Source: an uncultured Oscillospiraceae bacterium
GTDB taxonomy: Bacteria > Bacillota > Clostridia > Oscillospirales > Acutalibacteraceae
DNA: 64,000 bases
Assembly (NCBI GenBank): GCA_905193225.1
Contig: CAJJNV010000008.1
Location: 5,860 to 69,859 of the forward strand
Direction: 5' to 3'
The translations under genes and the position numbers were made by a program. The notes below the pieces were generated by a model. That model made no database searches. It was given only the letters and a program-made list of their open reading frames with translations, and was not told the DNA's origin. Every line of letters starts with the position of its first letter. Within the stretch, counting starts at the first letter, position 1. Below, one piece after another: positions 1,436 to 58,640 of the stretch.

Positions 1436-1759
1436 ATATTTTTTCCTCCTTCGGTTTTTGATTTAAATACTGATTTTTCTCACAAAAAATATTAACTGCG
1501 CCCCGCTTTTTAAAAGACAGGCAAGGCGGAGTTCTTTATGCTCGGTGTTGCTTTGTTATTGCTTTGGTATTGCTTTGTTTCGCTCGGTATTTGCCTTGTG
1601 TTTTTGCTTTTGGATATTGTGCTGATGATTTAATTGCGATTGAAATTATTATATTTTTTACGGATGTTTTATTGTGCTTGTTGACAGAAAGCTACTGTTT
1701 AACTTGGCTTTTGTCAATACACCGTAGTAACCGATATAGCACCGCCGCGGCTGCAAGGT

Positions 1760-1903
1760 GTGCTGAGGCAAGTCAGCTCTGCTGACCGGAGGGCGGCCGG
1801 CAGCAAGCGCAAAGCAGCAATCGGAAAATGCGGCGTATTTTTTCTTTAAGGCTGCGGTGTTTTGCGCCCTCCGTTCTCGGCAGGGCCGAGAAGGCCTCAG
1901 CAC
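1760..1903. ncRNA. GC-rich structured repeat element, copy A (reverse orientation relative to B and C); candidate novel ncRNA or structured repeat
   Basis: Outer stem GTGCTGAGGC (1760-1769) pairs with GCCTCAGCAC (1894-1903). Sub-hairpin GTCAGC-tct-GCTGAC. Mid stem CGGAGGGCG (1787-1795) pairs with CGCCCTCCG (1865-1873). Sub-hairpin TTCTCGGC-agg-GCCGAGAA. The 69-nt core contains CTGCGGTG and AATCGGAA, which read CACCGCAG and TTCCGATT on the opposite strand. Confidence 0.6.
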
Positions 1904-1935
1904 GCCGGCGGCCGCTTGCCTATAGCATACATTTA

Positions 1936-5056: not shown

Positions 5057-5854
5057 CTACGCCTTCAAATCAAAATACCGCTCTGCGTTGTCCCAAAGTA
5101 TCTTTCTGCGCTCACCATCGCTTAAATCAAGGGCGTTAAACCGCCGGATTTCCTCGGCGGGATCCCACATGGGGTAATCGGTTCCGTAAAAGACCCTGTC
5201 GGCGGTGTATGTCTTTATTATCTCGGCCGCCCGCTCTTTTGACATAGCAAAAAGCGACGACGAGCAATCAACCATAAGGTTTTCCACATCCCACAGTTCC
5301 TTTACCGCCTCGTCCCATATAGACCAGCCGCCCAAATGTGCCCCGATTACCTTAAGATCGGGAAATCTCTTCATAACCGTTTTTAATTTAGACGGTGCAG
5401 AAAAGGTATATCGCTTGTCCCCCATATGAATGAGAAAAGGAAGCCTGCCCCCCACTATTTCAAACATATTGAAGGCCTCTTTGCTGTCCAGCTCATACTT
5501 CTGAAAATCAGGATGAATTTTGATTCCAGCAAGGCCGAGGGAAATTATCTCCTCAACCTCATCCTCGATGTGTTCGCTTAAAGGATGAAGAGTGCCCATT
5601 CCGATGAACCTTTGGGGATTTTCCGAAACCGACGACGCGATAAAATGGTTGATGGACGAAACCTGCCTCGGTGCGGTGGCAACCGAATGAATGGCAGCGA
5701 CGGTTGTGCCCGCCTTATCAAGCTCGGTATCAAGGGATTTAAGGCTTCCGTCAAATGACATTTTCACTCCGTAAAAATTCCCGATGGCGTTGGATGCCTT
5801 TTGGGCAATTTTTTCGGGATAAATATGGCAGTGAACATCAAAAATCTTTTGCAT
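5057..5854 (-). CDS. amidohydrolase-family (TIM-barrel metal-dependent hydrolase) protein
   Basis: 265 aa starting MQKIFDVHCHIYP..., with a C-terminal GTDYP motif typical of Amidohydro_2. Confidence 0.65.
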   Translation of the reverse strand: MQKIFDVHCHIYPEKIAQKASNAIGNFYGVKMSFDGSLKSLDTELDKAGTTVAAIHSVATAPRQVSSINHFIASSVSENPQRFIGMGTLHPLSEHIEDEVEEIISLGLAGIKIHPDFQKYELDSKEAFNMFEIVGGRLPFLIHMGDKRYTFSAPSKLKTVMKRFPDLKVIGAHLGGWSIWDEAVKELWDVENLMVDCSSSLFAMSKERAAEIIKTYTADRVFYGTDYPMWDPAEEIRRFNALDLSDGERRKILWDNAERYFDLKA

Positions 5855-6025
5855 AAAAATCCTTCCTTTTTAAGAAACGTGCAGTGTATGTATCTCTGCC
5901 CGTTTCCTCTCCCCTCAATTATACAATAACCTCGGTTTTATTCAAGCATAATTTCAAATTTTCTATTTACTTTTTTTATGGGCAGGTGTATAATGTAAAC
6001 ATTCCACAAGAAAGAGGATAAACCT

Positions 6026-8350: not shown

Positions 8351-8709
8351 AGCGTCAGATTAAATTTCTCTAATACAGAAATTTTTTCACCACTTTAAAA
8401 TTATGCCCTTTCTCTTAAGGCTTTCTTTCGAGAAGGGGCATTTTTTCTTTTGTCATTCTTTTCAACACACAATGCTAAATTTGTGCACAGCCGCGCTATG
8501 CTTTCTTTTTGAAAAACTTTTGACATATAAAATATTTTTCTTTGCAATATTATAAAAATTCTTTACAAATTAAACAAATTGTATTATAATGTTATGTGTT
8601 GTGTTGCGTCGGATAGGGATAAATTACCTTATAGAGTGTTATTTATCCGATCAATCCGATTTATTCCTATCCGGTGCAATACCTACGGATGATAAAAAGG
8701 AGAAGTATA

Positions 8710-10323
8710 ATGAAAAAGCTGATTTCAATTTTAACCGCATTTTCTCTGGTTATCTCTCTTTTTGTTTTTGGCACCGGCGCTTCCGCCGACACCACAAACA
8801 AAAGCTACCTCTTGATGAGCAATTCCTCCGACCGAAACTATGTTGCAAAAAAGGGCCGCAGCTATTACAATGATACCTCCCTGCGCCTTACCTGGTCGGC
8901 TGCGGGATACTCGGTTAGATTTTACGGCACCGAGCTTAAAACAACGATGACCGCTGATGGTACAAGCGGCACCCTTAACGTATACGTTGACAAAAATAAA
9001 AACCAGTATTATTTCAATACCGAAGCCTCGAGCTATTCTGCCGCCAGGGACGAGTATAACGCCAACTGCCCCCACATTTCCCTTTCAGACGGCAAGCGCA
9101 CATATACCGTCGTATCCGGCCTTGCAAAAGGATATCATACCGTTACACTCTTAAAGCGCGCCGAGCTTGACCGTTCGTCCAACATCTCGGTAAACGACAT
9201 TATAACCGACGGTTATTTCTGCGATCCCCCTGCAAAATCCTCCCGCAAAATCGAAATTGTCGGCGACTCCAACGCCACCGGATTCGGCAATATGGCAATG
9301 TCGGGCGAAAGCGGCGATTACAACTGGTATGAGCAGGATGCCACCCTGTCCTTTGGTGCATACTGCGCCGAGGAACTTGCCGCCGATTACTCCATCTGCG
9401 CCCACAGCGGTGCGACCGTAACTCCCGGTCTTGCCGAAGGGACATTACTCGACAAATATCTGCAAACCGACGCTTACAACGGCGTTACATCGGAATATGA
9501 TTTTGAAGGCGGCTCGGATGTTGTCATAATCCACCTGGGTGACAACGACCATGACGCGACCGAAGCCAAAGGCACAAGCAATTATGTTAAATATCTCGCC
9601 CAAATGATAAATCAGGTCAGAAGCAAAAACCCGAACGCCAAGATAATTTGTGTGCTCTCTCTTGCAGGCTATTCCGACTGGCATCCCTATGTTCAGCAGG
9701 CCATTGATGCCTCGGGCGACACCAACACTTATAAATATCTCAACGGCAATTCAAACAACGGCGCTCCCGCCGGCCATGCGCTTCAAAAATATCACAAAAT
9801 TCTCGGTCTCAACCTTGCGGCATACATCCGCACCCTTATGGGCTGGAATGGTAAGGTATACGAAACTGTGGCCGACACCGCCAATTCAAATATAAGCGTC
9901 AACCTTCCACAAAGTTTCTATAAGGCGGGCGACACCGTAACCTTCACCCCATCGGTAACCGGCGGACAGGTTGGCAGCGCAACCGTCAAAACCATCGGTA
10001 CCACCTATGGCACAAATGTTGCGGTGGCAAAATCGGGCAGCAGCTTTTCATTTACAATGCCTTCCGACCGCGTGCTCGTCTCGGTTGAAGCAAGCAAACA
10101 GCTGCTTGCGGGAGACATTAATTTAAGCGGAAAATCCAATGCGGTCGATGCACTTATGGCCCTTAAATATGCAACAAAATCGCTGACCCTTTCATCCGAG
10201 CAGACCGCAGCCGGCGATGTAAACGGAGACGGCAAGCTTACCACCGTAGACGCGCTTATAATACTTCAGTATTCGGTCAAGAAAATGGTTTCATATCCCG
10301 TCGGCGAGTATGTTTATTTCTGA
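8710..10323 (+). CDS. secreted CE2-like SGNH carbohydrate esterase with C-terminal dockerin, paralog of 6026..8350
   Basis: MKKLISILTAFSLVISLFVFGTGASA signal peptide. IEIVGDSNATGFG, IHLGDNDHD, GHALQKYHK blocks. Dockerin DINLSGKSNAVDALMALK and DVNGDGKLTTVDALIILQ. AAAGGAG RBS at 8710 (track ORF starts 8674). Terminator ~10411-10450. Confidence 0.8.
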   Translation: MKKLISILTAFSLVISLFVFGTGASADTTNKSYLLMSNSSDRNYVAKKGRSYYNDTSLRLTWSAAGYSVRFYGTELKTTMTADGTSGTLNVYVDKNKNQYYFNTEASSYSAARDEYNANCPHISLSDGKRTYTVVSGLAKGYHTVTLLKRAELDRSSNISVNDIITDGYFCDPPAKSSRKIEIVGDSNATGFGNMAMSGESGDYNWYEQDATLSFGAYCAEELAADYSICAHSGATVTPGLAEGTLLDKYLQTDAYNGVTSEYDFEGGSDVVIIHLGDNDHDATEAKGTSNYVKYLAQMINQVRSKNPNAKIICVLSLAGYSDWHPYVQQAIDASGDTNTYKYLNGNSNNGAPAGHALQKYHKILGLNLAAYIRTLMGWNGKVYETVADTANSNISVNLPQSFYKAGDTVTFTPSVTGGQVGSATVKTIGTTYGTNVAVAKSGSSFSFTMPSDRVLVSVEASKQLLAGDINLSGKSNAVDALMALKYATKSLTLSSEQTAAGDVNGDGKLTTVDALIILQYSVKKMVSYPVGEYVYF

Positions 10324-10607
10324 TGCCGACACAGAAAATGCATCGATTGATTGACCGGCTGATTGATTAACCTACTGCCCTTTCAACAAACGATTTATTT
10401 CATTAAATTCAACACCTCTGACAGCGCAAAGCTTTCAGGGGTGTTTTTTGTTGGGCCATTGCCGAGGTGCCATGGTTGTTTGTTTGTATCTTCTGACCTG
10501 CGGCACCTTGCTGCTGTTTTGCGGTGCTTTTTATGCTTCTTTTTTATGCCGGCGTTTTTTGATGCCGTTTCTATACTGCGTGATTGAAAGCTGTGATTTT
10601 GACCTAC

Positions 10608-10748
10608 CGCTGAGGCAGCCTCGGCGCAGCCGAGACCGGAGGGTACGGCATCCCGCAGTCTTACCTACAAACAAGGCTGCACTTAAAAAACTTATATGCT
10701 TTTATCCGAGAGCCTCCCTCCGATCAGCTTGCGCTGATTGCCTCAGCG
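10608..10748. ncRNA. GC-rich structured repeat element, copy B
   Basis: Outer stem CGCTGAGGCA (10608-10617) pairs with TGCCTCAGCG (10739-10748). Sub-hairpin CTCGGC-gca-GCCGAG. Mid stem CGGAGGG pairs with CCCTCCG. Sub-hairpin ATCAGC-ttgc-GCTGAT. Core contains CCCGCAG and TTATCCGAG. Confidence 0.6.
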
Positions 10749-10880
10749 TCCCGCAGCCGTGCACATTAGGTCAGCTGACAACCCTTCGCAGCCTTCTGCC
10801 GCACGCAAATACACAAAACCCTGCCTAATGAAAAGGCCTTAGCATCTGCGCCAAGCCTTTAAGACTTTTATTTAATCTAA

Positions 10881-10930
10881 AAACGCACAAACAGCGTGCA
10901 TCCCATTTTGCGAGATGCACGCCGTTTTTA
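10881..10930. terminator. strong bidirectional rho-independent terminator, with no coding gene immediately upstream
   Basis: AAAAACG...GCGTGCATC-ccattttgcga-GATGCACGC-CGTTTTT. Confidence 0.55.
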
Positions 10931-11078
10931 GCTTAAGCATAATGCCGCTTTTGTATCACTTATATTTATTAAGTTGTATCTGAACATCTGCAAAACAAAA
11001 CCATAAAGTGATATTTTTTTAAATTTTTGAATATATATTTCCGACAAATATTTTCATTGAAAACAAGGCGGTGGAGAT

Positions 11079-11764: not shown

Positions 11765-12028
11765 TTACTCTGCGAAGCCCGAAAGGACGAGATTTACAAG
11801 TCCCTCAACAGCTTCCTGCTCGTCGGCTCCGTCGGCGATAATGCGGATGGACGTTCCGCCGATAATACCGAGGGAAAGCACGCCGAGAAGACTCTTGGCG
11901 TTAACGCGGCGTTCTTCCTTTTCCACCCAGATAGACGATTTATATTCGTTGGCTTTCTGAATGAAGAAGGTTGCAGGGCGAGCGTGAAGTCCTACCTTGT
12001 TCTGAACCATTACATCTTTAACAAACAT
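11765..12028 (-). CDS. ptsH: phosphocarrier protein HPr
   Basis: MFVKDVMVQNKVGLHARPA..., the GLHARPA active-site His signature. Alignment to B. subtilis HPr places the start at MFVKD (track ORF starts 12067). Terminator hairpin AACAGAGTACC...GGTACTCTGTT at ~11700-11750. Confidence 0.85.
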   Translation of the reverse strand: MFVKDVMVQNKVGLHARPATFFIQKANEYKSSIWVEKEERRVNAKSLLGVLSLGIIGGTSIRIIADGADEQEAVEGLVNLVLSGFAE

Positions 12029-12266
12029 TAGAATCTCTCCCGATAATCTTGTTTTGATACTACTCATTATATCACAAAAATCTCATCAGTCAACGAATTT
12101 CGACCAATCTTTTGGGACAAAAGGTAAAGTTCTACTCCCGCACCAAATGCGGACAAATTTACCCCTTTGCCTTTGTTTATTTTACACAAAAATTTGTGCA
12201 AAAATTCACCACTATGACCAGTTTATCCTTCGACAGAATGTATTTTTGTTTTACAATATAGTGTTG

Positions 12267-13013
12267 TTATTCTCTATTTTCCTCTTTAAGCTGCGCAATA
12301 TATTGCAAATCTTCATTTGAGAGGTCGGCTTTTTCGAGCATTTCGGGACGCTTTTTAAAGGTGCGTTCCAGCGACTTTTGCCGCCGCCATTTTTTGATGT
12401 TGAGATGATGTCCCGAAAGCAGTACCTCGGGCACTTCCCTACCCTTCCAGTCTCTCGGGCGGGAATACTGGGGATACTCGAGCAGTCCCGAAAAATGGCT
12501 TTCCTCGGTAAAGCATTCGTCGCTTGAAAGCACACCGGGTACAAGCCTTGCCACCGTATCGGCAAGCACAAGAGCGGGAAGCTCACCGCCGGTCAGCACA
12601 TAATCGCCGATAGAGATTTCCTCGTCGACAATTTCCTCAAGCACCCTTTCGTCCACACCTTCATAGTGTCCGCAAAGTATAACAAGCCTCGGCAGCTTTG
12701 AAAGTTCAAGGGCCTTTTGCTGGGTCAGTGTCTTGCCCTGAGGGGACATATAAATGACGTATGGTTTATTTTCATCCATTTTTTCCACCGCTTTAAAGCA
12801 GTCGTAAACCGGCTGAGCCTGTATTATCATTCCCATTCCGCCGCCGAAGGGTGCGTCATCCACCTGCTTTTGCTTGTTTTCGGTATAATCCCTGATGTTG
12901 TGGCAATGGGTTTCGATAATGCCCTTTGCCCGAGCTCTACCGATTATACTTTCGCAAAGCACCCGATCGCACATTTCGGTAAAAAGGGTCAGAATGTCAA
13001 TCCTCATGGTCAA
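12267..13013 (-). CDS. trmD: tRNA (guanine37-N1)-methyltransferase
   Basis: (MT)MRIDILTLFTEM... with GGGMGM and the SPQG trefoil-knot motif. Overlaps the rimM stop. Confidence 0.9.
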   Translation of the reverse strand: MTMRIDILTLFTEMCDRVLCESIIGRARAKGIIETHCHNIRDYTENKQKQVDDAPFGGGMGMIIQAQPVYDCFKAVEKMDENKPYVIYMSPQGKTLTQQKALELSKLPRLVILCGHYEGVDERVLEEIVDEEISIGDYVLTGGELPALVLADTVARLVPGVLSSDECFTEESHFSGLLEYPQYSRPRDWKGREVPEVLLSGHHLNIKKWRRQKSLERTFKKRPEMLEKADLSNEDLQYIAQLKEENRE

Positions 13014-13515
13014 AAATTCCTTTCAGGGGAGTAATTTTAATGATACCGCCGTCCACGTCTACGCTGTCTACCACATCGGGAATGGCGGGAACAAGGTATT
13101 CCTTTTTGTCCTCACCCTTTATGTGCCACACGTCGTTTGCGCCGGTTTTTGAAACATCGCAAAGCTCGCCCAAAAAATCGCCGCTTTGACTGTCGTAAAC
13201 CTTGCATCCCAACAGATCCTCAATAAAGTGACTGCCCTCGGGAAGATTTGCATCGTCGCGGTTAATGTACACAATTTTGTTTCTGAAGGCCTCTGCCTGC
13301 TCGATTGTGTCTACCCCGTCAAGTTTCATTAGTACCATATTTTTGTGGGCTCTGGCGGCCTTTACGGCGATTTTACGGGCACCCTCGCCGTCGAGATAGA
13401 GAAATTTAAAGGATGTAAGAAAATCGGGGCTGTCGCTCCAGGGCTGCACCCTGACCTCTCCCCTGATTCCGTGGGTACCGGTTATTTTGCCGGTTTCGAT
13501 AAATTGTTTTTTCAT
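12997..13515 (-). CDS. rimM: 16S rRNA processing protein RimM
   Basis: 172 aa. KITGTHGIRGEVRV motif and a PRC-barrel C-terminus. Confidence 0.85.
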   Translation of the reverse strand: MKKQFIETGKITGTHGIRGEVRVQPWSDSPDFLTSFKFLYLDGEGARKIAVKAARAHKNMVLMKLDGVDTIEQAEAFRNKIVYINRDDANLPEGSHFIEDLLGCKVYDSQSGDFLGELCDVSKTGANDVWHIKGEDKKEYLVPAIPDVVDSVDVDGGIIKITPLKGIFDHED

Positions 13516-13751
13516 AAAAATTCTCCGAAAAAAGATATATTGATAGCACGAGGATTAAAACGGATTTGCCGGTCGGTTAATCTGCTCTGCGGTATCGTTT
13601 CATTTCCCATATTAGTTAGCTTAACGCACCGCGTTACCGTTTATAATTGCAGTTTCGTTACGACCGCTTGCGCCTGCTCTTCGCCGAAATATTGTGTCAG
13701 GCAGTCGGACGCGGCTTTGCGCTATACAAAGCCTTGCGGATATGTAACGGC

Positions 13752-13898
13752 CGGGCGCCGAGACTTTCCCGGCCTTGCCGGGAACGGGAGGAGCAACACA
13801 CCGCAGTTTTCGGGAAAACGACACGCTATATTATCCGATTACCGCTTCGCATCAGCAGCCTTTCCTCCCGGTCAGCTGACGCTGACAGTCTCGGCACC
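13752..13898. ncRNA. GC-rich structured repeat element, copy C
   Basis: Outer stem GGGCGCCGAGACT pairs with AGTCTCGGCACCC (one mismatch). Sub-hairpin TTCCCGGC-ctt-GCCGGGAA. Mid stem CGGGAGG pairs with CCTCCCG. Sub-hairpin GTCAGC-tgac-GCTGAC. Core contains CACACCGCAG, TTATCCGATT and GCTTCGCATCAGCAGCC, shared with copy A in reverse complement. Confidence 0.6.
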
Positions 13899-14018
13899 CT
13901 TGCTTTAACGAAAGCCATAAAGCGCACATCTGCCTTCGGCCTGATAAGCATCACACCACACGTCCGATTGCGCACCTCCCGAGCCAAAAAAGCATTGCAA
14001 AAGTACAAAAGTATTTTA

Positions 14019-14165
14019 TCACAATCTATCGGCTTTGTAAACATCAAAAAACCATTCACCGCCTATCCGTCCCGCAGCAGCCCCGCTGTAAACCGCAGCA
14101 AAGGCCACACCTCCAGCCGCAATAAACGCCGCGCCGACAATCGCCGCACATAACCCGGCTTTCAT
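14019..14165 (-). CDS. possible small hydrophobic peptide (48 aa, Gly/Ala-rich TM helix)
   Basis: Hand translation: MKAGLCAAIVGAAFIAAGGVAFAAVYSGAAAGRIGGEWFFDVYKADRL. Preceded by GGAAGGTG RBS. Below the length cutoff of the ORF track. Confidence 0.25.
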   Translation of the reverse strand: MKAGLCAAIVGAAFIAAGGVAFAAVYSGAAAGRIGGEWFFDVYKADRL

Positions 14166-14407
14166 CACCAACACCTTCCGATAAACACAAACACCCACCG
14201 CCGAAAGACGATGGGTGTTTAATTAAGTTTTAAGCAACGCCGCGATGCATCAAGTGCTTAATTAAAAACTCAAGCTGTGCATCGGCTTTTGCCTTGATAT
14301 TCACACGATGCCACAAAGCATCAGGCTTTTATATTTACATTTGCGGGATACTGCCGTGTATCAACACATTGTTTGACATTTGCTCGGTGTCCGGCAGCAT
14401 CTGTATT

Positions 14408-16498
14408 TTATTTTCCGATGGAATCGGTGCGATAGACAAACTTCACCTGTCCGTCCATATCGCCCGAAAGGCCGGTGAAGGTTTTGTAATCCTTGGATAC
14501 GTCCACCGTTGCCTTGAAGCGGGTAACAAGTTTTCCGATTCCTCCGGCCGCCTCACTGAGCTTGTCGACACCCTGCTCCTTAAAGGCTTTAAGTCCGTCG
14601 GAAAGCTTAAGTGCGCCGTCGCGGAGCTGTGTAACGCCGCTGACCAGTGCGGGGGCGCCGTCTTTAAGGGTCAAAATACCGTTGTAAAGCTCGGCTGCGC
14701 CTGCGCTCAGCTGCTCGGTACCCGCCTTTAAGGTGTCGGTGCCGTCCTTTAGCTGTCCTGCGCCTGCGGCCGCCTCGGACACCTTGTCGGTATAGGTCGA
14801 AAGTCCGTAATAGAAGGTTGCGTAGCTATCAAGCTGACCTTTAAGTGCGGTCAGGCTCTGTGCACCGGCCTGAGCCTTTTCAAGTGCTGCGGGAAGATTC
14901 TGTGCAACAAGAGCGTCGATCTGTTTTTGAACATTGCCTTCTATGGTAGCCTTAAGGTTGTCGGAAGCCATTTGCTGTGCAAGACCCGCTTCGATCTGCG
15001 CCTTGGCCTTGTCGGTGGCCATTTGCGCCTCGATTGCGGCGTTTACCTGAGCCTGTACCGCCTCGGGAACCTGTCCTGCTGCCACTGCAGCGTCATACTG
15101 TTCGACCGTCATCTGAGTCGCGGTTGAAACGACGGTTGCTTTAACGGCGGCTCTTACAGCCTCTTCAACCTTGGGTCTTACCTGCTCGGAAACGGCCTGT
15201 GTAACGCCTGCGCGGATCTGATCCTCGTTTGCCTTAACGGCATCGGTGACCTGCTTTGTAATTGCCTCGTCGCTGGGAGAAGCAACTATTCCGTCGATAA
15301 CGGTTTGATAGTTTTCAATTGTAAGCTCGGGAGCGGTGATGCCCGATGCGGCGATCTGGCTGTTTGCGGTGGCAAGCAGTGTTTCAAAAACCTGCTTTGA
15401 GCCGCCGTTTAAGGTATCGTTGTTTGCGGCAATTTGAGAAAGTCCCGAGGAAAGTGTGGAAATGCCGCCCTGAAGGGTGCCTGCACCGTTATCAAGGCTT
15501 GCTGCGCCGTCCTTAAGCTGTGCAGCGCCTGCCGCAAGCTTATCGATTCCGTCCACAAGCTCGCCGGATTTTTCAAGCAGTGTGCAAAGTCCGTCGTAAA
15601 GCTGAGAGGATCCGTCGAGCAGCTGAGATACCGCGTCGGTCAGCTTACCGAGCGAAGAATCAAGATCGTCGAGACTGTCCATTTTGCTTGTGTCAACGGC
15701 GTTGAACACCTCGTTGGTGGCTATCGTAACGGTGTTGGTGAGCGAGAACTCGTTAACGTCGGCCGAGATTTCAACATAATCGGGAATGTCAATTTCGTCG
15801 GAATCAATATCAAGGTTGGATTTAAGTCCCGGGAAGGCAATGCCGATAACCGCCATTTTGTCTCCGTCGCCCAGCATTTTTCCGTTGGTTACCTCAACGT
15901 TTCTGAAATGGTCACTGTCGAGAAGCAGACCGGTCAGCATTGCGAAGGGTACATAAATTTTTTCTTGCTGTCCGTCTATTTCAACATATTCATACTGGTT
16001 GTTTTCGTAGGTATAGCGGATTGTGACCCTTCCGCTCTTTCCGGCAAGTTCGTCGGGAGAAATGGCCTTTCCGTCCAGTGTGTAGTTGAGTTTAAGGTTT
16101 ACCGGCAGATCTTTTGTGATGTTGCCGCGATAATAAATATCATTGCCCTGGGCGTCCCATATCTTCATATTCTCGCCGTTGAGGGTATAGGTTTCGTCGC
16201 CCTTGACGTTTTCCACATCGGTAAGACCGCTTTGATCGTCTATGGTATCGGAATTAAGGCTGTTTTTGATCCAATCGCTGACGATGATCTTTTTAACCGA
16301 TCCATCGGCTCCGGCCAGTACATAAACCGTTTCGTCTTTGCTGTTTACGCCGCTGTCGGAAGTTTCGGCCGTTTCCGTAACCGACTGAGTTTCTTCCTTC
16401 TTATCATTATTTGCGGCAAGGGCCGTGGCGGCAATACCGCTTCCCACAAACAAGCAGGAAAGGGCAACCGCAAGCACACTCTTTAATTTTTTATCCAT
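14408..16498 (-). CDS. secreted YhgE/Pip-domain-like repeat protein (Ala/Gln-rich helical repeats); MMPL-associated
   Basis: 696 aa. Signal peptide MDKKLKSVLAVALSCLFVGSGIAATALA. Repeated LxxGxxxL segments (LKDGAASLDNGAGTLQGGISTLSSGLSQ). Same strand as the MMPL gene. Confidence 0.5.
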   Translation of the reverse strand: MDKKLKSVLAVALSCLFVGSGIAATALAANNDKKEETQSVTETAETSDSGVNSKDETVYVLAGADGSVKKIIVSDWIKNSLNSDTIDDQSGLTDVENVKGDETYTLNGENMKIWDAQGNDIYYRGNITKDLPVNLKLNYTLDGKAISPDELAGKSGRVTIRYTYENNQYEYVEIDGQQEKIYVPFAMLTGLLLDSDHFRNVEVTNGKMLGDGDKMAVIGIAFPGLKSNLDIDSDEIDIPDYVEISADVNEFSLTNTVTIATNEVFNAVDTSKMDSLDDLDSSLGKLTDAVSQLLDGSSQLYDGLCTLLEKSGELVDGIDKLAAGAAQLKDGAASLDNGAGTLQGGISTLSSGLSQIAANNDTLNGGSKQVFETLLATANSQIAASGITAPELTIENYQTVIDGIVASPSDEAITKQVTDAVKANEDQIRAGVTQAVSEQVRPKVEEAVRAAVKATVVSTATQMTVEQYDAAVAAGQVPEAVQAQVNAAIEAQMATDKAKAQIEAGLAQQMASDNLKATIEGNVQKQIDALVAQNLPAALEKAQAGAQSLTALKGQLDSYATFYYGLSTYTDKVSEAAAGAGQLKDGTDTLKAGTEQLSAGAAELYNGILTLKDGAPALVSGVTQLRDGALKLSDGLKAFKEQGVDKLSEAAGGIGKLVTRFKATVDVSKDYKTFTGLSGDMDGQVKFVYRTDSIGK

Positions 16499-30576: not shown

Positions 30577-30636
30577 ATATCTTAAAATACATCTTAAAAC
30601 GCATCTTAGAACGCATCTTAGAACGCATCTTAGAAC
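30577..30636. repeat. 12-bp tandem repeat, about 5 copies (RCATCTTARAAY), in the ftsL-pbp intergenic region
   Basis: acatcttaaaac / gcatcttagaac x3, preceded by the degenerate copy atatcttaaaat. Confidence 0.8.
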
Positions 30637-31085
30637 AAATCAGCAATCTTTTCAAAGATGTTTTTATTATCCTCGGCCACTTCAACCGAATCCTCATCGC
30701 AGATGTTGATGTAGCCGGTCTGCACACCGGTGGCCTTTTGCATTTCCTTTTCCTTTGCGACGTTTTCGATGTTGTTAAAGGAAACGATGGAGCTAAGTTC
30801 AACATTAAGGCGGCTTTCCTCCTGTTTAAGGGCGGTTATCTGCTCATTTGCGGCATTGATCTGTGCACAGACCTCGGAATTTTTGATCTGTCCGTGGATT
30901 TGTATAACAATGAGGGTCAAAACGATGGTCGCCACCGCACCGATTTTAAGCTTGGCCTTAAGACCGGCATTATGAGAACTTCTGTGACGATTGCGATTTT
31001 CGGGCAAACGAATAACCTTTGCCTCGTTCTTTTTGGGAGCAAATTTTTCAAAATCGTATGCTGCGTTGTCATAAAATCTATTCAC
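30630..31085 (-). CDS. ftsL: FtsL-like bitopic cell-division protein
   Basis: Single TM IGAVATIVLTLIVIQI then coiled coil. Lies between rsmH and pbp as in dcw clusters. Confidence 0.5.
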   Translation of the reverse strand: MNRFYDNAAYDFEKFAPKKNEAKVIRLPENRNRHRSSHNAGLKAKLKIGAVATIVLTLIVIQIHGQIKNSEVCAQINAANEQITALKQEESRLNVELSSIVSFNNIENVAKEKEMQKATGVQTGYINICDEDSVEVAEDNKNIFEKIADLF

Positions 31086-33163: not shown

Positions 33164-36100
33164 TTATTCAGCAGTTGCAGCCTTTACGGGAAGCTCGGTG
33201 CGGAGCTGTACGAAGTACTGGAGAATTGCCAGTGCATCGGAAGTATCAACAACACCGTCAAGGTTGACGTCGGCAGCCTTGGCAGCAGCCTCATCGAGAG
33301 TACGGGAACCAACGAATGCCTGGAGAGCCCAGAGAGCATCGGTAGAGTCGATAGTGCCGTTTCCGTCAACATCACCGTATTTTACGGTAGGTGCGGGAGG
33401 CTCGTTAATGCGCTCAACGAGCTTGGCAAGCTTATTCTTCTTCTCTGCAGGGACAAGATCCTTCCGAGCGTCGGTAAGAGCGGTGAACTGAGCGTTAGCA
33501 GTAACGATATTTGCCTTGTCAGCATCTGTTAACTCAGCGTCAACTGCGGGCAGAGCATCGATAAGATCCTCAACAGCCTTAGCAGCAGCGATGTCATCGG
33601 TCAGCTCAGTAATCTTTTCACCAACAGCAAAGAGTTTCTCTTTGTTGTTTACGTTGTCCTGAAGTTCCTCGGTAAGAGCATCGAAAGCTGCCTTTGCTTC
33701 ATCGTACTTCGGTTTAACATCATTGAGGTTAGTATAATTGATGTCACCGGGCTCGGTAAGAGCATCGATGAGATCCTCAACGGGTTTAACCTTCTTGATA
33801 ATGTCAAAAGCCTTGCGGACTGCAGCAAGTTTATTGGTTTCTTCGGTGGGAAGCATATCCTTCTTAGCATCGGTAAGAGCATCGAAAGCGTTGCCTGCAT
33901 CAACGATAGCAGCCTCGTTATCGAGGGTTACATCTTTAGCCTCGGGAAGAGCAATGATCTTCTCGTGGACAGCCTTAACATCGGCATTTGCGGGATCGAG
34001 CAGAGCATACTCAAGGATAGCTCTGTCGAGGGTTGCAGAAGCTGCAAGATTTTCAGCAGTTGCAGTGTTGATCCAGTTGTTGAGTGCTTCGCGGGCAGTC
34101 TTTGCAGCCTCGATAGCATCACCGGACTCAGCAGTTACGGTTCCGATAGCGGCAACAGCGTCGATGAATTTCTTCTCGGCGTTAGCGCGTCTTTGGGCAT
34201 AGGCAAAAGATACAACGGCGATGTCCTTCATGTAGAATTTGCCGGAGTTAGCCTGGCCGAAATGGAGGAGGTTAACATTTTCAAGACCGTATTTGGGAGT
34301 CATGTTCTCAACAACGGATGTTCCGATTTCGGAAATGAGGCAGGAAGCTCTCTGCCACTCGTTACCCTTAACGGAAATAACGCTGGGATACTGCCACTGG
34401 ATACCGTTGTCCTCGTTACCGTGGGTAATGTAGAAGGTGTTGTCCTTATCGGGATTTACAAGGAACTCGAACTGATAGTAATCATTGTAGTTGAAGGAAT
34501 GGGTATAGGTGTCTTCACCGAAGTAACGGCCTACACGGACATATACCGAGTTGTAGAGTTCAACATTGGGATAGGAGGTACCGCCGGTCTGAACATCCAT
34601 CCAGAAGGCGCCGTCCTTCATTGCGTGTTCGTTTCCGCAGAAATCAAATACATCCTCAGTGTCCTTTTCGCAGGTGCACATAATGTCGCCCTTGACAATT
34701 ATTCTGGCCTGGTAAGCTTGTTTAACCTTGCTAAGCTTTCCGGGAAGTTCGGGATATTTATTCTTGAACTCGGTAGCCTGAGGTCTGGTAAGACTCCTGG
34801 TAATGGTGTCGATTTCGTCAAGTTTCACCTTGAGTTCAGCCAGGTCATCTTCTTCAGCGGAAACTTCATCGGGCTCGGGAAGAGCCATGATCTTTGCAGC
34901 AAGCTGATCAATGATATCCTTGAACTTCTCTTCTTCTTCTGCGAGAAGAGCGTTAAGTTTCTCTGTGCCCTTAACCTCGGCCTTCTGCTCGTCGGTCAAA
35001 GCATTGTATGCTTCCTTGGCAGCGGCAAGAGCCTTAAGGTCGTTGATGGTGAGAGAGCCGGGTGCGGGAAGAGCGTCGATGAGCTCGTCAACCTGCTCGG
35101 CGGGAGTGAGGTTCTTAATTCCGTAAACATATACCCAGTTGGTATCTTTTTCACCGGCCTGCTCGGGTTCGATTTCGATGTTTACACCGTCATCTGCGGG
35201 GCAGAAGGAGGTGAGGAGGGTCTCTCCGTCGTAAACTTCGATTTCGTAAACGGTAAGAGCGGCGTTGGGAATATCAGCAGATTTTCTTCCGCCGTAAACG
35301 AAGGAAGCCTTGTAAGTATCGGCAGCGTCAACTGCGATCTCGGAAACGAGAGTCTTATAATCGTAATCGTATCTGCTGTTGTGCTCGGTTGCAAGAGCCT
35401 CGTAATCGGCAATGTTGAGTCGGCTTCCGGCATGATTGGAGCCTGCGTCGCCGAGGAGCTGGAGATAACCGAAGTAGCGCTGATCAGAGCCGCCTACGGC
35501 GTTGATCTTAGCCTTAACGGTAAGGGTCTTTCCGGCTTCTACCTCAAACTTATTATTGTCGCCGTAGATGGTGGAGTAAGCCCAAACGAACTTAACACCG
35601 ATCTTGTCGGCCTGTGCCATAAGAGCATCAAGAGCTTCCTTGGCGGCAGTAAGCTTTGCGGCATTGGTAACTTCAGCCTTCTGAATGTCGGTCAGGGCAT
35701 CGAAAGCAGCCTTGGCGGCATTGATGGCGTCGGCGTCGCCGAGGGTAACATCTGCAGCGGCGGGAAGAGCATCGATAGCAGCGATAACTCCTGCAACGGC
35801 AGCGTCAACGGGCCATGCACTGGTGTTGGCCTTCAGAGCGTGGAAATAAGCACTCTGTCCGCCGGGACGGCCGACAAATACCATACCGGTAACCTTGGTG
35901 ATGTCAAACTTAGCACCTGCGGTGGAAAGGTCAACAGCAAAGGTGTTTTCACCGGCGACTACATCGCCGTTAACGGTGAGGCGAACACCGTAATCGGTGT
36001 AAGCTTCGGATTGGGAGATTTTTTCCACAACGGGAAGGTCTCCGTCGAAAGAGGTAAGAACCATACCGTACTGGTCGGGATCTGCAACCTCGCGGCTGAA

Positions 36101-37651
36101 AACGGTCTCGAAGGGAGAATCTCCGCCGAATTCAGATTCCTGAGAAGAACCGGTCCAGTCGATGAATACGCTTTCGATTCCGGTGAGGTTTTTAACCTCC
36201 GCAAACTTAACGCGGGCACGGAGAGGCCACCAAATATTTACGGCATCGCCCTGCCATGCACAGTTGTCTGCCGCTTTCCAGTTGGCAACAGAAGCCTCGG
36301 TGCACTCGTCGAGAACGATCTGGTCCTTGACTTTGAGAGCCTCAAGAGCGGCAACAACAGCGGTAAGCTTTTCAGCATTGGTAACATTAGCCTTTTGCTC
36401 GTCGGTAAGTGCATCATAAGCAGCCTTTGCGGCGAGAATGTCGGCTTTGTTGCCGATAACAACATCGGCAGCCTCGGGCAGAGCGTCGATGGCGGCGATG
36501 ACAGCGTCAACAGCCGCATCGGACTGAACGGCTATGTTGGCGACAACATTGTCGAGCCACTGTACGTGATCTCCGTTGTAAGCGGTGCAGCCCCAGAAAT
36601 AGAATCCGGTAACATTGGTTATGTCAAAGTTTTCACCGGTGGAAACGGGGGTGGTGGTGATGGTAGCGAAGGACTCGTCGCCCTTGCCGTAGCCGGCGCG
36701 GATGGCGGCGACATCAAAAGCCATAACCTTAGAGGTATCAACTTCATTAAGCTCAAAATACCTGTCTCCTCTTTCAGGATTAATTCCGTCATTTCCGCTG
36801 AAGAGGTAGAAGGCTACGTCTGCGGGGCCGGTAAGAGCCTCGGCAGTGTTGGCGGCAAAGTCGAAGGAGATGGACTGGATTCCGGTAAGGTCAAGACCTG
36901 CGATGGGTCCGCCCTGGCAGAAACCGCCGCTCTGAGAGGTGCGGATAGAGCCGGTTCCTTCGGTCTTCTTCTCGGTGGTCACCTCAAGGCCGTCACCCGG
37001 ATAGGGTGCCCAACCCTCTGCGCTGTCGCAGTTGTTGAGCATAACGGTCTTGGTGGTAACAGCAGGAGCATAGTAAACTTCGTCGGTGGTGAGAACCTGA
37101 CGAACAGCGTCCTTACCGTCGAGTATTGTGTTAGCCTTCAAATCGGGACAAAATGCTCTGCCAAGTGCATCTTTAACAATACCGTCCTGAACAGCAGCAT
37201 CAGCGAACTCGCGAACGATACCGGCAAGCTCGCCTCTACCGGCAGCTGCATACTCCTCGGCAGGAGTGGTACCGCCGATAAGGGGGAACTTGGTTGCGAA
37301 ATAAAGGTTTCCGTTTTCATCATAACCCCAAGTGTTTAAGTTCCAGTTTCCGTCAACTCTCTCGTGAGGGTTCTCGGAAGTGGCGGGTAAAATTCCCCAC
37401 TGAGCCTCGTAGCCGTAGCTACTGAGATCAACGGGGCCGCCGTTAAGAGCGGTTAAATCTTCTTCTGTTGCATTGAAAATGAAGCGGGTGGTGCAGTACT
37501 CTGCGCCCTCTTCGGGCTTCATTGCAACAACAGCGATCATTGTTAACTCTTTATCTTCTGCCAAGGTTGAAATCATTCCTGCTGAAAGAACGCTTAAAAC
37601 CATAAGCACAGACAAAAGAACCGACAATGATCTTTTGAATGTTTTTTTCAT
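33164..37651 (-). CDS. giant secreted multi-module protein (1495 aa) with C-terminal dockerin, beta-sandwich (CBM-like) modules, about 9 copies of a ~50-aa helical repeat, and a Cys-rich KDTEDVFDFCGNEH module
   Basis: GGAGGA RBS + ATG at 37651. Signal peptide MKKTFKRSLSVLLSVLMVLSVLSA. Repeats IDALP...AAKAAYDALTDEQKA.V.N..KL. Dockerin DVDGNGTIDSTDALWALQ / DVNLDGVVDTSDALAILQ. Terminator downstream. Confidence 0.8.
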   Translation of the reverse strand: MKKTFKRSLSVLLSVLMVLSVLSAGMISTLAEDKELTMIAVVAMKPEEGAEYCTTRFIFNATEEDLTALNGGPVDLSSYGYEAQWGILPATSENPHERVDGNWNLNTWGYDENGNLYFATKFPLIGGTTPAEEYAAAGRGELAGIVREFADAAVQDGIVKDALGRAFCPDLKANTILDGKDAVRQVLTTDEVYYAPAVTTKTVMLNNCDSAEGWAPYPGDGLEVTTEKKTEGTGSIRTSQSGGFCQGGPIAGLDLTGIQSISFDFAANTAEALTGPADVAFYLFSGNDGINPERGDRYFELNEVDTSKVMAFDVAAIRAGYGKGDESFATITTTPVSTGENFDITNVTGFYFWGCTAYNGDHVQWLDNVVANIAVQSDAAVDAVIAAIDALPEAADVVIGNKADILAAKAAYDALTDEQKANVTNAEKLTAVVAALEALKVKDQIVLDECTEASVANWKAADNCAWQGDAVNIWWPLRARVKFAEVKNLTGIESVFIDWTGSSQESEFGGDSPFETVFSREVADPDQYGMVLTSFDGDLPVVEKISQSEAYTDYGVRLTVNGDVVAGENTFAVDLSTAGAKFDITKVTGMVFVGRPGGQSAYFHALKANTSAWPVDAAVAGVIAAIDALPAAADVTLGDADAINAAKAAFDALTDIQKAEVTNAAKLTAAKEALDALMAQADKIGVKFVWAYSTIYGDNNKFEVEAGKTLTVKAKINAVGGSDQRYFGYLQLLGDAGSNHAGSRLNIADYEALATEHNSRYDYDYKTLVSEIAVDAADTYKASFVYGGRKSADIPNAALTVYEIEVYDGETLLTSFCPADDGVNIEIEPEQAGEKDTNWVYVYGIKNLTPAEQVDELIDALPAPGSLTINDLKALAAAKEAYNALTDEQKAEVKGTEKLNALLAEEEEKFKDIIDQLAAKIMALPEPDEVSAEEDDLAELKVKLDEIDTITRSLTRPQATEFKNKYPELPGKLSKVKQAYQARIIVKGDIMCTCEKDTEDVFDFCGNEHAMKDGAFWMDVQTGGTSYPNVELYNSVYVRVGRYFGEDTYTHSFNYNDYYQFEFLVNPDKDNTFYITHGNEDNGIQWQYPSVISVKGNEWQRASCLISEIGTSVVENMTPKYGLENVNLLHFGQANSGKFYMKDIAVVSFAYAQRRANAEKKFIDAVAAIGTVTAESGDAIEAAKTAREALNNWINTATAENLAASATLDRAILEYALLDPANADVKAVHEKIIALPEAKDVTLDNEAAIVDAGNAFDALTDAKKDMLPTEETNKLAAVRKAFDIIKKVKPVEDLIDALTEPGDINYTNLNDVKPKYDEAKAAFDALTEELQDNVNNKEKLFAVGEKITELTDDIAAAKAVEDLIDALPAVDAELTDADKANIVTANAQFTALTDARKDLVPAEKKNKLAKLVERINEPPAPTVKYGDVDGNGTIDSTDALWALQAFVGSRTLDEAAAKAADVNLDGVVDTSDALAILQYFVQLRTELPVKAATAE

Positions 37652-44035: not shown

Positions 44036-44088
44036 CATTAACCGTTAAACCTCGTTAACCGTTAAACCTCGTTAACCGTTAAACCTCG
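44036..44088. repeat. 17-bp tandem repeat x3 (TTAACCGTTAAACCTCG)
   Basis: Three perfect contiguous copies, preceded by a TCACTGAGC x2 motif. Confidence 0.85.
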
Positions 44089-44106
44089 TTCGCCGATTCT
44101 TAGACA

Positions 44107-50309: not shown

Positions 50310-52202
50310 ATGAACGATCCCTTTGTACACAAGCCGGTTTCCGGATCGGCACAGGACGAGACCTGCCCGCAGGACAGCACCGCTGAGCAAAACAATACCG
50401 CTGCTCAAAACAATACCGCTGCTCAAAACAATACCGCTGCTCAAAGCAACACTACCGTGCAAGACACCACCGCCACACAAAACATTACTGTCGCACGAAA
50501 CAATGCCATCCGGCAAGGCACTTCCGTCACGCAAAGCATCTCAGATAGCAGCAAAAGCACTGCAGCTAAATCTCCAAATAATCGTTCCTTTTACGGCGAC
50601 GTGCTGAACACTGCGGGAAGTATTTTCTTTGCTGCAATGGCGGGATTTTTCCCCCTTTTCTGCGGCGGAAGCTATAACATAATTCTTGATTCAAAATATG
50701 CTGCCTTTGAAACCATAACAATTTTTTCGGCGGTATTTTTCGTTTTTTTCTGCCTTCTTAAAAATGTTTCCATCCGCCGCTCTAAACCGTCGATCACTTT
50801 AACGGATCGAACAAAAGCCTCCTTTAAATCTGCCGTTCTGACGCTCGTCAAAACGGCCGACGTCACGGTTATTCTGCTTATATGCTTCTGCCTTTTGACG
50901 CTTCTTTCAGCCGTCCTTTCACCCTATGCCTTTTCCCTTAATTCGGCGGGAAAAAGCGCGGTGATTTTCGGATCGGGGCGATATGACGGGCTGTATGTTT
51001 TAGCCCTTTACGTCGCGGTTTTTGCCCTTTCATATTTTTTCGTAAAGTTTGATTATAAATGCGTTTTGCTGGTTGGTGCGGTCACCCTTATTATGTCGAT
51101 CATCGGCATACTTCAGCTTTTCGGCATAAACGCCTTCGGCCTCTACCCGGCTGACATTTACACCGGTTATTACGCCGAGTTCATTTCCACCATGGGCAAC
51201 ATTGATTTTATGTCGGCGCTCATGTCTATGTTTTTGCCTCTTGTCTTCGGCTGCTTTTTGTCGGCGGACGGGAGCAGAAAAAGCGAGGCTTTTCTACTGA
51301 TTTGTTTCTTTGTCGGCGGATTCTGCCTTATAAAAACCGATGTCCAGTCGGGTATGATTGCCCTTCTTGTAACGGCGGCGCTGACCCTTCCCCTCTCTTT
51401 AAAAAGCAAAAGAAGTCTTGCCAAAGCCCTTGTATTTTTGCAAACGTCGACGGTGCTCATATGGCTTTGCAACTGCTTTGATCTTTCTAAGGGAGAGGGC
51501 ACGACGGTTGTGCAATTTTGCATAAACGCAAAGCTGACGATTGCCGCAGCCGCAGTGATTTTCCTGCTTTTAGCCTTGCTGATTCTGCAAAGGAAAAAAG
51601 GACTTTCAAAAAAAGTCCTGTCAAAACTCCCCTGCGCCCTATTTATTTTTGAAGGAGCGGCCCTTTTGCTCCTTGCCGCATATATGTATTTCCTTTTCAC
51701 CCCCGCCGACAAAGACAACGCCTTAAACCAGCTTTACGCCCTGCTTCACGGAAGCCTTTCCCAAAGCTCGGGCTCGGGCAGGGGCGGCATTTGGAAATAC
51801 AGCTTTTTAATGGGTCTTGAGCGCCCCGTTTTAGGCCATGGGCAGGGATGCTATAAGCTTGCCATGGACGATTTTTCCGCAAGGGTAGGTTACACATACT
51901 ACACATCAAGAAACGCCTCTCTCGACGCCGCACACAACGAATTTTTGCAGCTTTTCTGCACCGGCGGTATTTTAGGCCTTTTAAGCTATGCGGGAGCTCT
52001 CGCCTCCCTTATTGCAAGGAGTATAAAAAGGCGATTTAGCGGAAAATACACCGTTTGCCTGCTTTCGGCGGTTGTCGGCTATCTTGTCCAAAGCTTTTTC
52101 ACCTTTTCCATCGTCGAGGTGGCTCCCGTATTCTTTATGCTTTGCGGAATTCTTTTGCATAATGTGCGGGACGCCGAAAAGGTTTCCTCACCGGAAAAAT
52201 AA
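50310..52202 (+). CDS. O-antigen ligase/polymerase-domain (Wzy_C) polytopic membrane protein with N-terminal low-complexity repeat
   Basis: About 12 TM. Motif SGSGRGGIWKYSFLMGLERPVLGHGQG matches the Wzy_C loop. N-terminus carries a TAAQNN x3 repeat encoded by an 18-bp tandem DNA repeat. Confidence 0.6.
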   Translation: MNDPFVHKPVSGSAQDETCPQDSTAEQNNTAAQNNTAAQNNTAAQSNTTVQDTTATQNITVARNNAIRQGTSVTQSISDSSKSTAAKSPNNRSFYGDVLNTAGSIFFAAMAGFFPLFCGGSYNIILDSKYAAFETITIFSAVFFVFFCLLKNVSIRRSKPSITLTDRTKASFKSAVLTLVKTADVTVILLICFCLLTLLSAVLSPYAFSLNSAGKSAVIFGSGRYDGLYVLALYVAVFALSYFFVKFDYKCVLLVGAVTLIMSIIGILQLFGINAFGLYPADIYTGYYAEFISTMGNIDFMSALMSMFLPLVFGCFLSADGSRKSEAFLLICFFVGGFCLIKTDVQSGMIALLVTAALTLPLSLKSKRSLAKALVFLQTSTVLIWLCNCFDLSKGEGTTVVQFCINAKLTIAAAAVIFLLLALLILQRKKGLSKKVLSKLPCALFIFEGAALLLLAAYMYFLFTPADKDNALNQLYALLHGSLSQSSGSGRGGIWKYSFLMGLERPVLGHGQGCYKLAMDDFSARVGYTYYTSRNASLDAAHNEFLQLFCTGGILGLLSYAGALASLIARSIKRRFSGKYTVCLLSAVVGYLVQSFFTFSIVEVAPVFFMLCGILLHNVRDAEKVSSPEK

Positions 52203-58547: not shown

Positions 58548-58640
58548 AGCCCAGCCGCGCAACGGACGATTTGACCTAAGCCCAGCCGCGCAACGGACGA
58601 TTTGACCTAAGCCCAGCCGCGCAACGGACAAGTTGGCCGA
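58548..58640. repeat. 32-bp tandem repeat, about 2.6 copies (AGCCCAGCCGCGCAACGGACGATTTGACCTAA), about 100 bp upstream of the amidase gene
   Basis: Two perfect copies plus a diverging third. Confidence 0.8.

Follow-up and report, generated by a model that had tools for sequence, protein, structure and literature searches.

What kind of element is the structured sequence in the long gap upstream of rimM in the DNA analysed here, a 64-kb stretch of an uncultured Oscillospiraceae genome (contig CAJJNV010000008.1; this whole stretch is called the window), and does it belong to the gene that it precedes? A preliminary description, made from the letters alone, had called it copy C of a structured element with two relatives, A and B, elsewhere in the window. 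We find that copy C is one member of a family of structured repeats, each about 150 nt long, that are interspersed between genes and confined to a single lineage. On the reading that we prefer, and that we hold with about half of our confidence, the fold of copy C is selected in a single-stranded molecule, probably RNA, and its role is most likely exerted in cis.

All the pieces attributed to copy C are present, shifted one base to the right of the coordinates first given. They comprise the outer-stem sequences GGGCGCCGAGACT (13753-13765) and AGTCTCGGCACCC (13887-13899) and the sub-hairpins TTCCCGGC-ctt-GCCGGGAA (13766-13784) and GTCAGC-tgac-GCTGAC (13871-13886). With the same architecture on both strands they fold into a four-way junction, in which a 12-bp outer helix (P1) leads to a 6-bp hairpin (P2), an 8-bp helix that encloses a 70-nt interior (P3, CGGGAGGA/UCCUCCCG) and an 8-bp hairpin (P4); as the helices are spaced by 0-1 unpaired bases, the junction is nearly perfect. 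The folding energy is -72.4 kcal/mol on the plus strand (z -6.27) and -83.9 kcal/mol on the minus strand (z -6.52), and on neither strand did any of 200 shuffled sequences fold as well. The structure is real and lies far above chance. The outer stem had been described as pairing at 12 of 13 positions; the stem is there, but its lone mismatch is one only on the plus strand, where it is C.A, and is a G.U pair on the minus strand. Rfam 15 at gathering thresholds gives no match in the whole window, a search of 13500-14420 at E<=10 returns only unrelated 12-23-bit matches far under the thresholds, and ARAGORN finds no tRNA or tRNA-like gene in the window.

Copies A and B are homologous to copy C, as had been proposed. 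With copy C as query, nhmmer recovers copy A on the opposite strand (1759-1905, E 3.7e-14) and copy B (10605-10749, E 2e-4). The search suggested in the preliminary description, with a covariance model built from the three sequences, was run over the 64-kb window with filters off and finds exactly three loci, A (E 1e-31), B (E 1e-28) and C (E 2.6e-32); the other significant matches are the same three loci on the opposite strand, and the rest are no better than E 0.4. Similarity among the copies is restricted to the element, their flanks do not align, and the window holds no solitary P2 or P4 hairpins outside the full copies. The outer stem of copy C, once thought unrelated to those of A and B, turns out to be a variant of the family consensus that differs at two pair positions of the 8-bp core (GCTGAGGC/GCCTCAGC against GCCGAGAC/GTCTCGGC). 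The Alifold consensus is better on the strand given by A(+), B(-) and C(-), where several C.A and A.C positions become G.U; the favoured strand of copy C is the minus strand and not the one on which it had been written.

In total, the family comprises 18 distinct full copies that were aligned and one 5'-truncated copy, drawn from the window species, two sister species and two metagenome assemblies. Copy C is retained in six contigs of the same species, two of which also have a full copy B and a third of which (L003) ends inside copy B. Among 60 rimM loci from genome representatives, copies occur only in the two closest, here labelled L007 and L008. The first (RimM 97% identical, about 90% nucleotide identity, syntenic) has the orthologue of copy C and one extra copy; the second (RimM 91% identical) lacks a copy upstream of rimM but has one at another place. 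No copies occur in the 57 more distant rimM loci (RimM identity <=78%, mostly 33-61%; about 0.85 Mb). An exact-pattern scan of metagenome contigs, which are possibly chimeric at repeats, gave 37 stretches, 13 of them confirmed by the model, and two further copies in the same loci that do not match the exact pattern bring the metagenome copies to 15, nearly all from sample ERZ857629. Phages and plasmids, searched with the element by BLAST, and viral contigs, scanned by pattern, returned nothing relevant. The nearest genome records are metagenome-assembled genomes of uncultured Eubacteriales, Ruminococcaceae and Ruminococcus from the human gut, and the family is restricted to this lineage, an uncultured gut Ruminococcaceae clade that includes the window species and at least two sister species. 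A literature search found no described Ruminococcaceae repeat or non-coding RNA of the four-way-junction kind, and the best reading is that of a previously undescribed repeat family that belongs with the lineage-specific structured intergenic repeats.

All copies are intergenic and have ordinary housekeeping genes as neighbours (rny, fusA, aroA, ilvD, ksgA, PBPs, rsgA and others). According to first-pass open reading frame (ORF) calls, 4 of the 18 copies are co-oriented with both neighbours and 7 are antisense to both; 3 lie between convergent and 2 between divergent genes, and 2 have on their contig only a downstream neighbour, which is co-oriented. L090 joins the co-oriented group under better gene calls. 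A link to ribosome biogenesis, considered in view of the neighbours rimM, ksgA, rsgA, fusA and rny, was too weak to claim.

The aligned copies bear directly on whether the pairing matters. In the 18-copy alignment, which was itself fitted to the model, 87.5% of cells form standard pairs, compared with 78.5% after shuffling of the 3' partners and 33-45% after a slide of 1-3 columns. Changes on both sides are seen in 30 of 50 pairs, which none of 500 shuffles reaches, and the paired fraction is 89% in P1, 99% in P2, 99% in P3 and 96% in P4; the P3 of L067b, GGAGAG/CUCUCC, is a further instance of compensation. Together with the wobble intermediates described below for copy C, this bears out the proposal that two-sided changes of the stem reflect a selected structure, and selection on the pairing is supported. 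The changes also point to one strand. The core stems contain G.U in 18 cells and A.C in 3 (p 0.0015), or 12 against 3 when distinct events are counted (p 0.035), and the sense strand is the more stable one in 15 of the 18 copies. For copy C, successive states can be seen within a single species: in L001, L003 and L094 the 5' arm GCUGAGGC equals the family consensus and faces the 3' arm GUCUCGGC, which gives one U.G and one G.U pair in the outer stem. In the window strain the 5' arm is GCCGAGAC and both wobbles are now Watson-Crick (C-G and A-U), and the outer stem in L007 shows a third state, U-A and A-U. This is stepwise compensation via wobble intermediates, valid only on the minus strand of the window. 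The comparison shows that since their spread the copies have been kept foldable on one strand by compensatory substitutions through G.U intermediates. A first count had also suggested that A and B are better conserved between strains than their flanks. This was withdrawn, since the apparent excess of mismatches in the flanks came from distant indels and the near flanks are equally conserved in full alignments; from the comparison of strains against flanks no inference about selection on A and B is to be drawn.

The surroundings of copy C suggest how this strand would become RNA. The gap between rimM and its upstream gene, previously given as 880 bp of non-coding DNA, is indeed long (892 bp, 13516-14407), but within it are found a terminator, a conserved promoter, a long leader and a small, doubtful ORF. 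Five species share the promoter, GTTTACAAA-N12-GTGnTAnAATA (the window species, L007, L008, L009 and L024). Its distance to the rimM start codon (ATG) is 40-60 nt in L008, L009 and L024 and about 490-560 nt in the window and L007; the entire gap upstream of rimM measures about 110 nt in L009 and L024. The rimM leader has grown from about 50 to about 490 nt, with about 440 nt added between promoter and start codon and copy C sense-oriented inside. In the comparison of the region upstream of rimM that had been called for, copy C is kept within the species and in L007, and L008, L009 and L024 have no copy there. Because copy C lies between the conserved promoter and rimM and no terminator-like site intervenes, the rimM-trmD leader transcript very probably includes it, read as the strand that has the G.U pairs. 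The hydrophobic ORF of 48 codons reported earlier is there, with a good Shine-Dalgarno sequence (GGAAGG) and a 3' end that overlaps the rimM promoter, but its frame is lost in L007, where the N-terminus is conserved and indels of 53, 6 and 2 nt break the frame; the ORF is doubtful. Upstream of the rimM promoter, L008 has a gene for an AAA_14/DUF4143 ATPase (8453-9820), and L009 and L024 have an unrelated gene of 709-723 aa in this place; the region upstream of rimM is a gene-turnover hotspot in the clade.

The units have well-defined ends. Conservation falls to background 2-4 nt beyond the 8-bp core of P1 on both sides, so that the P1 arms GCUGAGGC/GCCUCAGC are the ends of the unit and form terminal inverted repeats, as in the miniature transposable elements with inverted repeats known as MITEs. 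In some copies (L091) P1 reaches about 19 bp. From strain to strain, and from the window to L007, the copies stay in place. Three sub-families share 40-60 nt of flank (A/L008/L091, L073/L090/L086 and L097/L073), and a degenerate half-copy lies about 45 nt upstream of two copies. The 5'-truncated copy (L091 6745-6879, minus strand) begins in the 5' arm of P3, 2.3 kb from a full copy with the same 3' flank, and resembles a segmental duplication followed by decay. In L101 (sample ERZ827492) the 5' flank of L067a (L067 about 10000-10400) and the 3' flank of L097 (about 400-1180) surround an element most like L083a; either copies have recombined here or the metagenome assembly is chimeric at the repeat.

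A second short repeat family was noticed in L008, with the form CCGTGGCGCCCCTTGTCAGGGGAGCT-[hairpin]-TGAGGGGTAGTAAG and a hairpin that is P2-like, P4-like or of a third type. It has at least 6 copies in 14.8 kb (1691-1745, 2095-2155, 5620-5690, 5830-5890, 5950-6005, 11920-11980, and 12240-12420), two of which flank the four-way-junction copy of L008, and none in the window. The hairpins thus behave as reusable modules. A further module, TTGTCAATGCAC-N12-13-TATTAAC (or GATATAGC), lies upstream of copies A, L008, L091 and L067b and also of the second-family units of L008 (window 1712-1745; L008 1800-1835 and 6040-6010 on the minus strand; upstream of the L091 and L067 copies). It is promoter-like by its spacing, and its -10 element is without the final T. 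A sigma-54 reading of an upstream GCACRGC motif was rejected by eye, as the GG/GC spacing and the bases do not fit.

On the preferred reading, the unit is a nested palindrome whose termini pair as P1, with two different hairpins, P2 and P4, just inside, and with P3 (CGGAGGG/CCCUCCG) closing an arbitrary interior of 70-75 nt to complete the near-perfect four-way junction. Such units would have spread between genes as separate pieces of DNA delimited by P1, as suggested by the sharp ends at a terminal inverted repeat, the dispersal in all orientations and the truncated and half copies, and they would show no recent activity. That the fold was maintained long after dispersal is indicated by the covariation, the strand-biased wobbles and the unchanged positions in strains and in one sister species. 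The fold would matter in single-stranded form, most likely as RNA upon transcription of a copy. If copy C acts at all, it would do so through its highly stable structure (-84 kcal/mol) in the 5' untranslated region of rimM-trmD, where it could serve as an mRNA stabiliser or an RNase processing site by analogy with what has been proposed for ERIC, REP, BOX and bcr1.

Several observations weigh against this reading. As to the mobile origin, direct repeats between a copy's own flanks average 6.06 nt and those between mismatched flank pairs 5.98 nt, which leaves no sign of target-site duplication, and a few 6-7-mers at about +/-20 nt (TATAGCA at A, TAAGCGT at L067a) are within chance. The best pair of paralogues in one assembly is 79% identical, so that nothing points to recent spread and mobility is inferred only; the extra copy in L007 and the missing copy C in L008 are both parts of larger indels, with no clean empty site. 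The conservation of the core is partly built in, as an exact-match core pattern served to retrieve 13 of the 15 metagenome copies. With 7 of the 18 copies antisense to both neighbours, the route to transcription of the favoured strand is unexplained, and the constant interior length of 70-75 nt is likewise left without explanation. Finally, G.T is the best-tolerated, least destabilising mismatch in single-stranded DNA also, so that the strand bias does not tell RNA from single-stranded DNA. The wobble asymmetry proves strand-specific single-strandedness, not RNA as such.

The interior suggests a first alternative. It measures 70-75 nt in all 18 copies, with a mean pairwise identity of 57%, compared with 82% in the core and 48% after shuffling. 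Dinucleotide shuffles fold as well as it does (mean z +0.06), and its G+C content is below that of the core; its length is conserved and its sequence is not. No consistent start codon or frame was seen by eye after the GGAGG of P3, and a peptide encoded in the interior was rejected. If the copies were independent small RNA genes, the junction could be a protein-binding scaffold and the interior a single-stranded region of fixed length, particular to each paralogue, that serves as guide, decoy or sponge, the RNA being freed from longer transcripts by processing at P1. The covariation and the strand-specific use of G.U would follow, both ends would be tied up in a helix, like those of stable processed RNAs, the fixed length and low structure of an otherwise variable interior would fit a single-stranded segment, and the P1 of about 19 bp in L091 and the like could be an RNase III substrate. 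A stand-alone gene should, however, bring its own promoter and terminator at conserved distances. A sigma-70 scan up to 200 nt upstream of the 18 copies found the rimM promoter for copy C and its L007 orthologue and one weak match (L100, 9/12), and a scan downstream found no consistent terminator, several copies sitting 3' of the terminator of the upstream gene; non-canonical promoters are possible, but flank conservation is lost 2-4 nt beyond P1. Furthermore, a guide or seed should be conserved, and between the window and L007 the divergence in the interior of copy C is no slower than that of the neutral flanks: 21 of 75 interior positions differ, compared with 3 of 68 in the core and 112 of 523 in the flanks (about 21%, large indels included), the whole gap being about 87% identical. 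The concatenated interiors, compared with phage genomes with a spacer-like origin in mind, gave only chance matches of 26 nt, and the family is confined to a very narrow clade. We regard independent small RNA genes as unlikely.

A second alternative is that the fold is selected in DNA, either single-stranded or as a cruciform. The family could be a non-autonomous transposon (MITE- or REPIN-like, or a derivative of IS200/IS605-style single-strand 'peel and paste' elements), with a terminal inverted repeat and subterminal hairpins as the recognition sites of a transposase in trans; or each unit could be a pair of inverted protein-binding sites at a fixed spacing, which the spacer of about 71 bp of free sequence would suit. 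The copies are multiple, intergenic and in both orientations, end sharply at the terminal inverted repeat with subterminal hairpins on both sides, and include truncated and half forms; hairpins resembling P2 and P4 recur in the second repeat family of L008, and presence varies between the sister species (an extra copy in L007, none at rimM in L008). IS200/IS605-type elements make no target-site duplication, with which its absence here agrees. A mobile origin of the units thus has to be reckoned with, and the earlier statement that the element is unlike a transposase-recognised terminal inverted repeat stands only in part: target-site duplications are indeed missing, but sharp ends at an inverted repeat and partial copies are there. 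Conversely, the scan of about 26 flanking proteins showed neither a transposase nor a RAYT; the sequences of P2 and P4 are not alike, whereas the end hairpins of IS200/IS605 elements match. The GTAG or CGTC tag by which REPs are recognised (PMC3733652) is not seen beside P2 (RTCAGC..GCTGAY) or P4 (GTCTCGGC..GCCGAGAC) in the aligned copies. Recent copies are lacking (no two copies in one assembly exceed 79% identity), positions do not shift among strains or between the window and L007, and the mixed orientation of A, B and C within 14 kb leaves no replication-strand rule. As to a simple insertion with target-site duplications and no conserved structure, which had been named as the outcome that would speak against a functional RNA, no duplications were found and the pairing is conserved. 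Selection at the DNA level is, in our view, a doubtful explanation.

A bolder form of the RNA reading would see not selfish repeats but a host-maintained multi-copy class of non-coding RNA in gut Clostridia, in which a conserved junction scaffold is bound by a common protein and each copy shows a different single-stranded segment of 70-75 nt. This is quite improbable; if true, it would constitute a new class of non-coding RNA with a scaffold-plus-variable-region architecture without described counterpart, and if the ordinary reading is true, the family adds one more lineage-specific structured repeat.

That the copies are decaying debris without function, structured only by inherited palindromy, would agree with the narrow taxonomic range, the lack of transcription signals and an ascertainment bias toward intact cores. 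It is very improbable in view of compensatory double substitutions and G.U-biased intermediates beyond the shuffle and slide controls, and of an interior that keeps its length while its sequence is randomised. Weakest of all, a cis-regulatory leader specific to rimM-trmD (a riboswitch, an autoregulatory site of the ribosomal-protein type or an attenuator), close to the idea of the preliminary description, would account for the sense orientation of copy C downstream of a conserved promoter but is extremely improbable and already contradicted by the family distribution: homologous copies of this dispersed repeat adjoin unrelated genes in all orientations, with no consistent sense position before homologous genes, the promoter serves rimM from 40-60 nt without the element in L008, L009 and L024, and no Rfam family matches. 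Copy C as a ligand- or rimM-specific switch is effectively excluded. The coordinates of copy C, its relatives and the features around it are collected in the table.

Table. Positions of the structured repeat copies, the parts of copy C and the neighbouring features in the window
Feature	Position	Strand	Basis or remark
Copy C, whole element (covariance-model match; RNA-sense = minus strand)	13746..13904	-	cmsearch 162.9 bits, E 2.6e-32
P1 5' arm, RNA GGGUGCCGAGAC, contains one U.G pair	13888..13899	-	fold
P2 hairpin, GUCAGC-GUCA-GCUGAC	13871..13886	-	fold; helix 99% paired in 18 copies
P3 5' arm, CGGGAGGA	13863..13870	-	fold; helix 98.6% paired in 18 copies
Variable interior inside P3, 70 nt	13793..13862	-	interior comparison across copies
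P3 3' arm, UCCUCCCG	13785..13792	-	fold
P4 hairpin, UUCCCGGC-AAG-GCCGGGAA	13766..13784	-	fold; helix 95.8% paired in 18 copies
P1 3' arm, GUCUCGGCGCCC	13753..13764	-	fold
Copy A (RNA-sense = plus strand; antisense to both neighbour genes)	1752..1912	+	158.4 bits
Copy B (antisense to both neighbour genes)	10598..10756	-	144.3 bits
rimM	12997..13515	-	Pfam RimM + PRC barrel
trmD	12267..13013	-	Pfam tRNA_m1G_MT
Expanded 5' leader of rimM-trmD (inferred), holds copy C	13516..14005	-	inference from promoter comparison
rimM promoter (predicted), TTTACA-17-TGnTAAAAT	14013..14041	-	no other strong promoter-like site in the gap on this strand
48-codon hydrophobic ORF, doubtful	14019..14165	-	frame not kept in L007
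Intrinsic terminator-like hairpin after the upstream 696-aa gene	14188..14221	-	terminator scan

The neighbouring genes in the window are rimM, trmD, an HPr-like gene, a DUF4830 gene and a CE2/GDSL esterase gene with a dockerin domain. The gap of about 1.2 kb around copy A holds two paralogous small genes on the minus strand (720-974 and 1190-1435), whose products of 84 and 81 aa both start M..V.IC[VI]GSSCH[LI]KGS and represent a small protein with a cysteine motif. Between the DUF4830 gene and copy B, the window strain (10928-10997) is without a 398-aa dockerin-domain gene that is present in another strain (L003 3214-4684) and in the sister species (L007 9000-10071, L008 13117-14313). Further repeats in the window, at 58548-58640, 50374-50499, 30579-30638, 44038-44095 and 33500-37500, are respectively three units of 31 nt, 18-nt units, five units of 12 nt, three units of 17 nt and a large internally repetitive coding region.

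The locus is of interest beyond its own gene. Compensatory evolution through G.U intermediates is caught here within a single species, and the example comes from an uncultured human-gut Ruminococcaceae lineage for which almost nothing is known on non-coding elements. An essential operon, rimM-trmD, has gained an insertion of about 440 nt, including a very stable structure, between its promoter and its start codon. The family also breaks metagenome assemblies, as in contig L003, which ends inside a copy, and may mediate rearrangements (L101).

Among known systems, integron attC sites resemble the family in their imperfect inverted repeats, a structure kept over sequence, a variable centre and function on one strand. 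Here, unlike attC, the copies are dispersed in mixed orientation and do not form same-orientation cassette arrays, the centre is constant in length, and a direct reading of the element termini GCTGAGGC/GCCTCAGC shows no attC core sites (RYYYAAC/GTTRRRY). Similarly, MITEs of the ERIC, Correia and RUP types are intergenic imperfect palindromes of 100-160 bp. They have terminal inverted repeats, target-site duplications such as TA and an internal sequence that is conserved among copies, whereas the present family has no duplications, a randomised interior and a four-way junction in place of a single long hairpin. Such MITEs are often co-transcribed and are reported to change mRNA stability or processing (PMC3184786). 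REPINs and BIMEs (PMC3116915, PMC3337134, PMC2817692) also consist of two inverted palindromic units around a less conserved spacer, can adopt one long fold, and are intergenic, multi-copy and long-lived; unlike in REPINs, each half here is a composite of about 35 nt (P1 arm, hairpin, P3 arm), and the two hairpins differ in sequence. The features that define the class of bcr1 and ERIC, namely multiple intergenic copies, lineage specificity, a conserved predicted fold and compensatory changes, are all found in the family. The bcr1 repeat of the Bacillus cereus group is about 155 bp long, is transcribed and has a cruciform-like RNA fold with two independent stem-loops and compensatory changes; it is flanked by 5-bp direct repeats, and its distribution is not conserved between close strains (PMC3184786). 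Its family differs from ours in these last two respects, as we see no target-site duplication and positions that are stable across strains and in one sister species, and the likeness is one of description. Nevertheless, as a lineage-specific Firmicutes repeat with dozens of interspersed intergenic copies and a compensated cruciform-like fold (PMC3184786), bcr1 is the closest described analogue.

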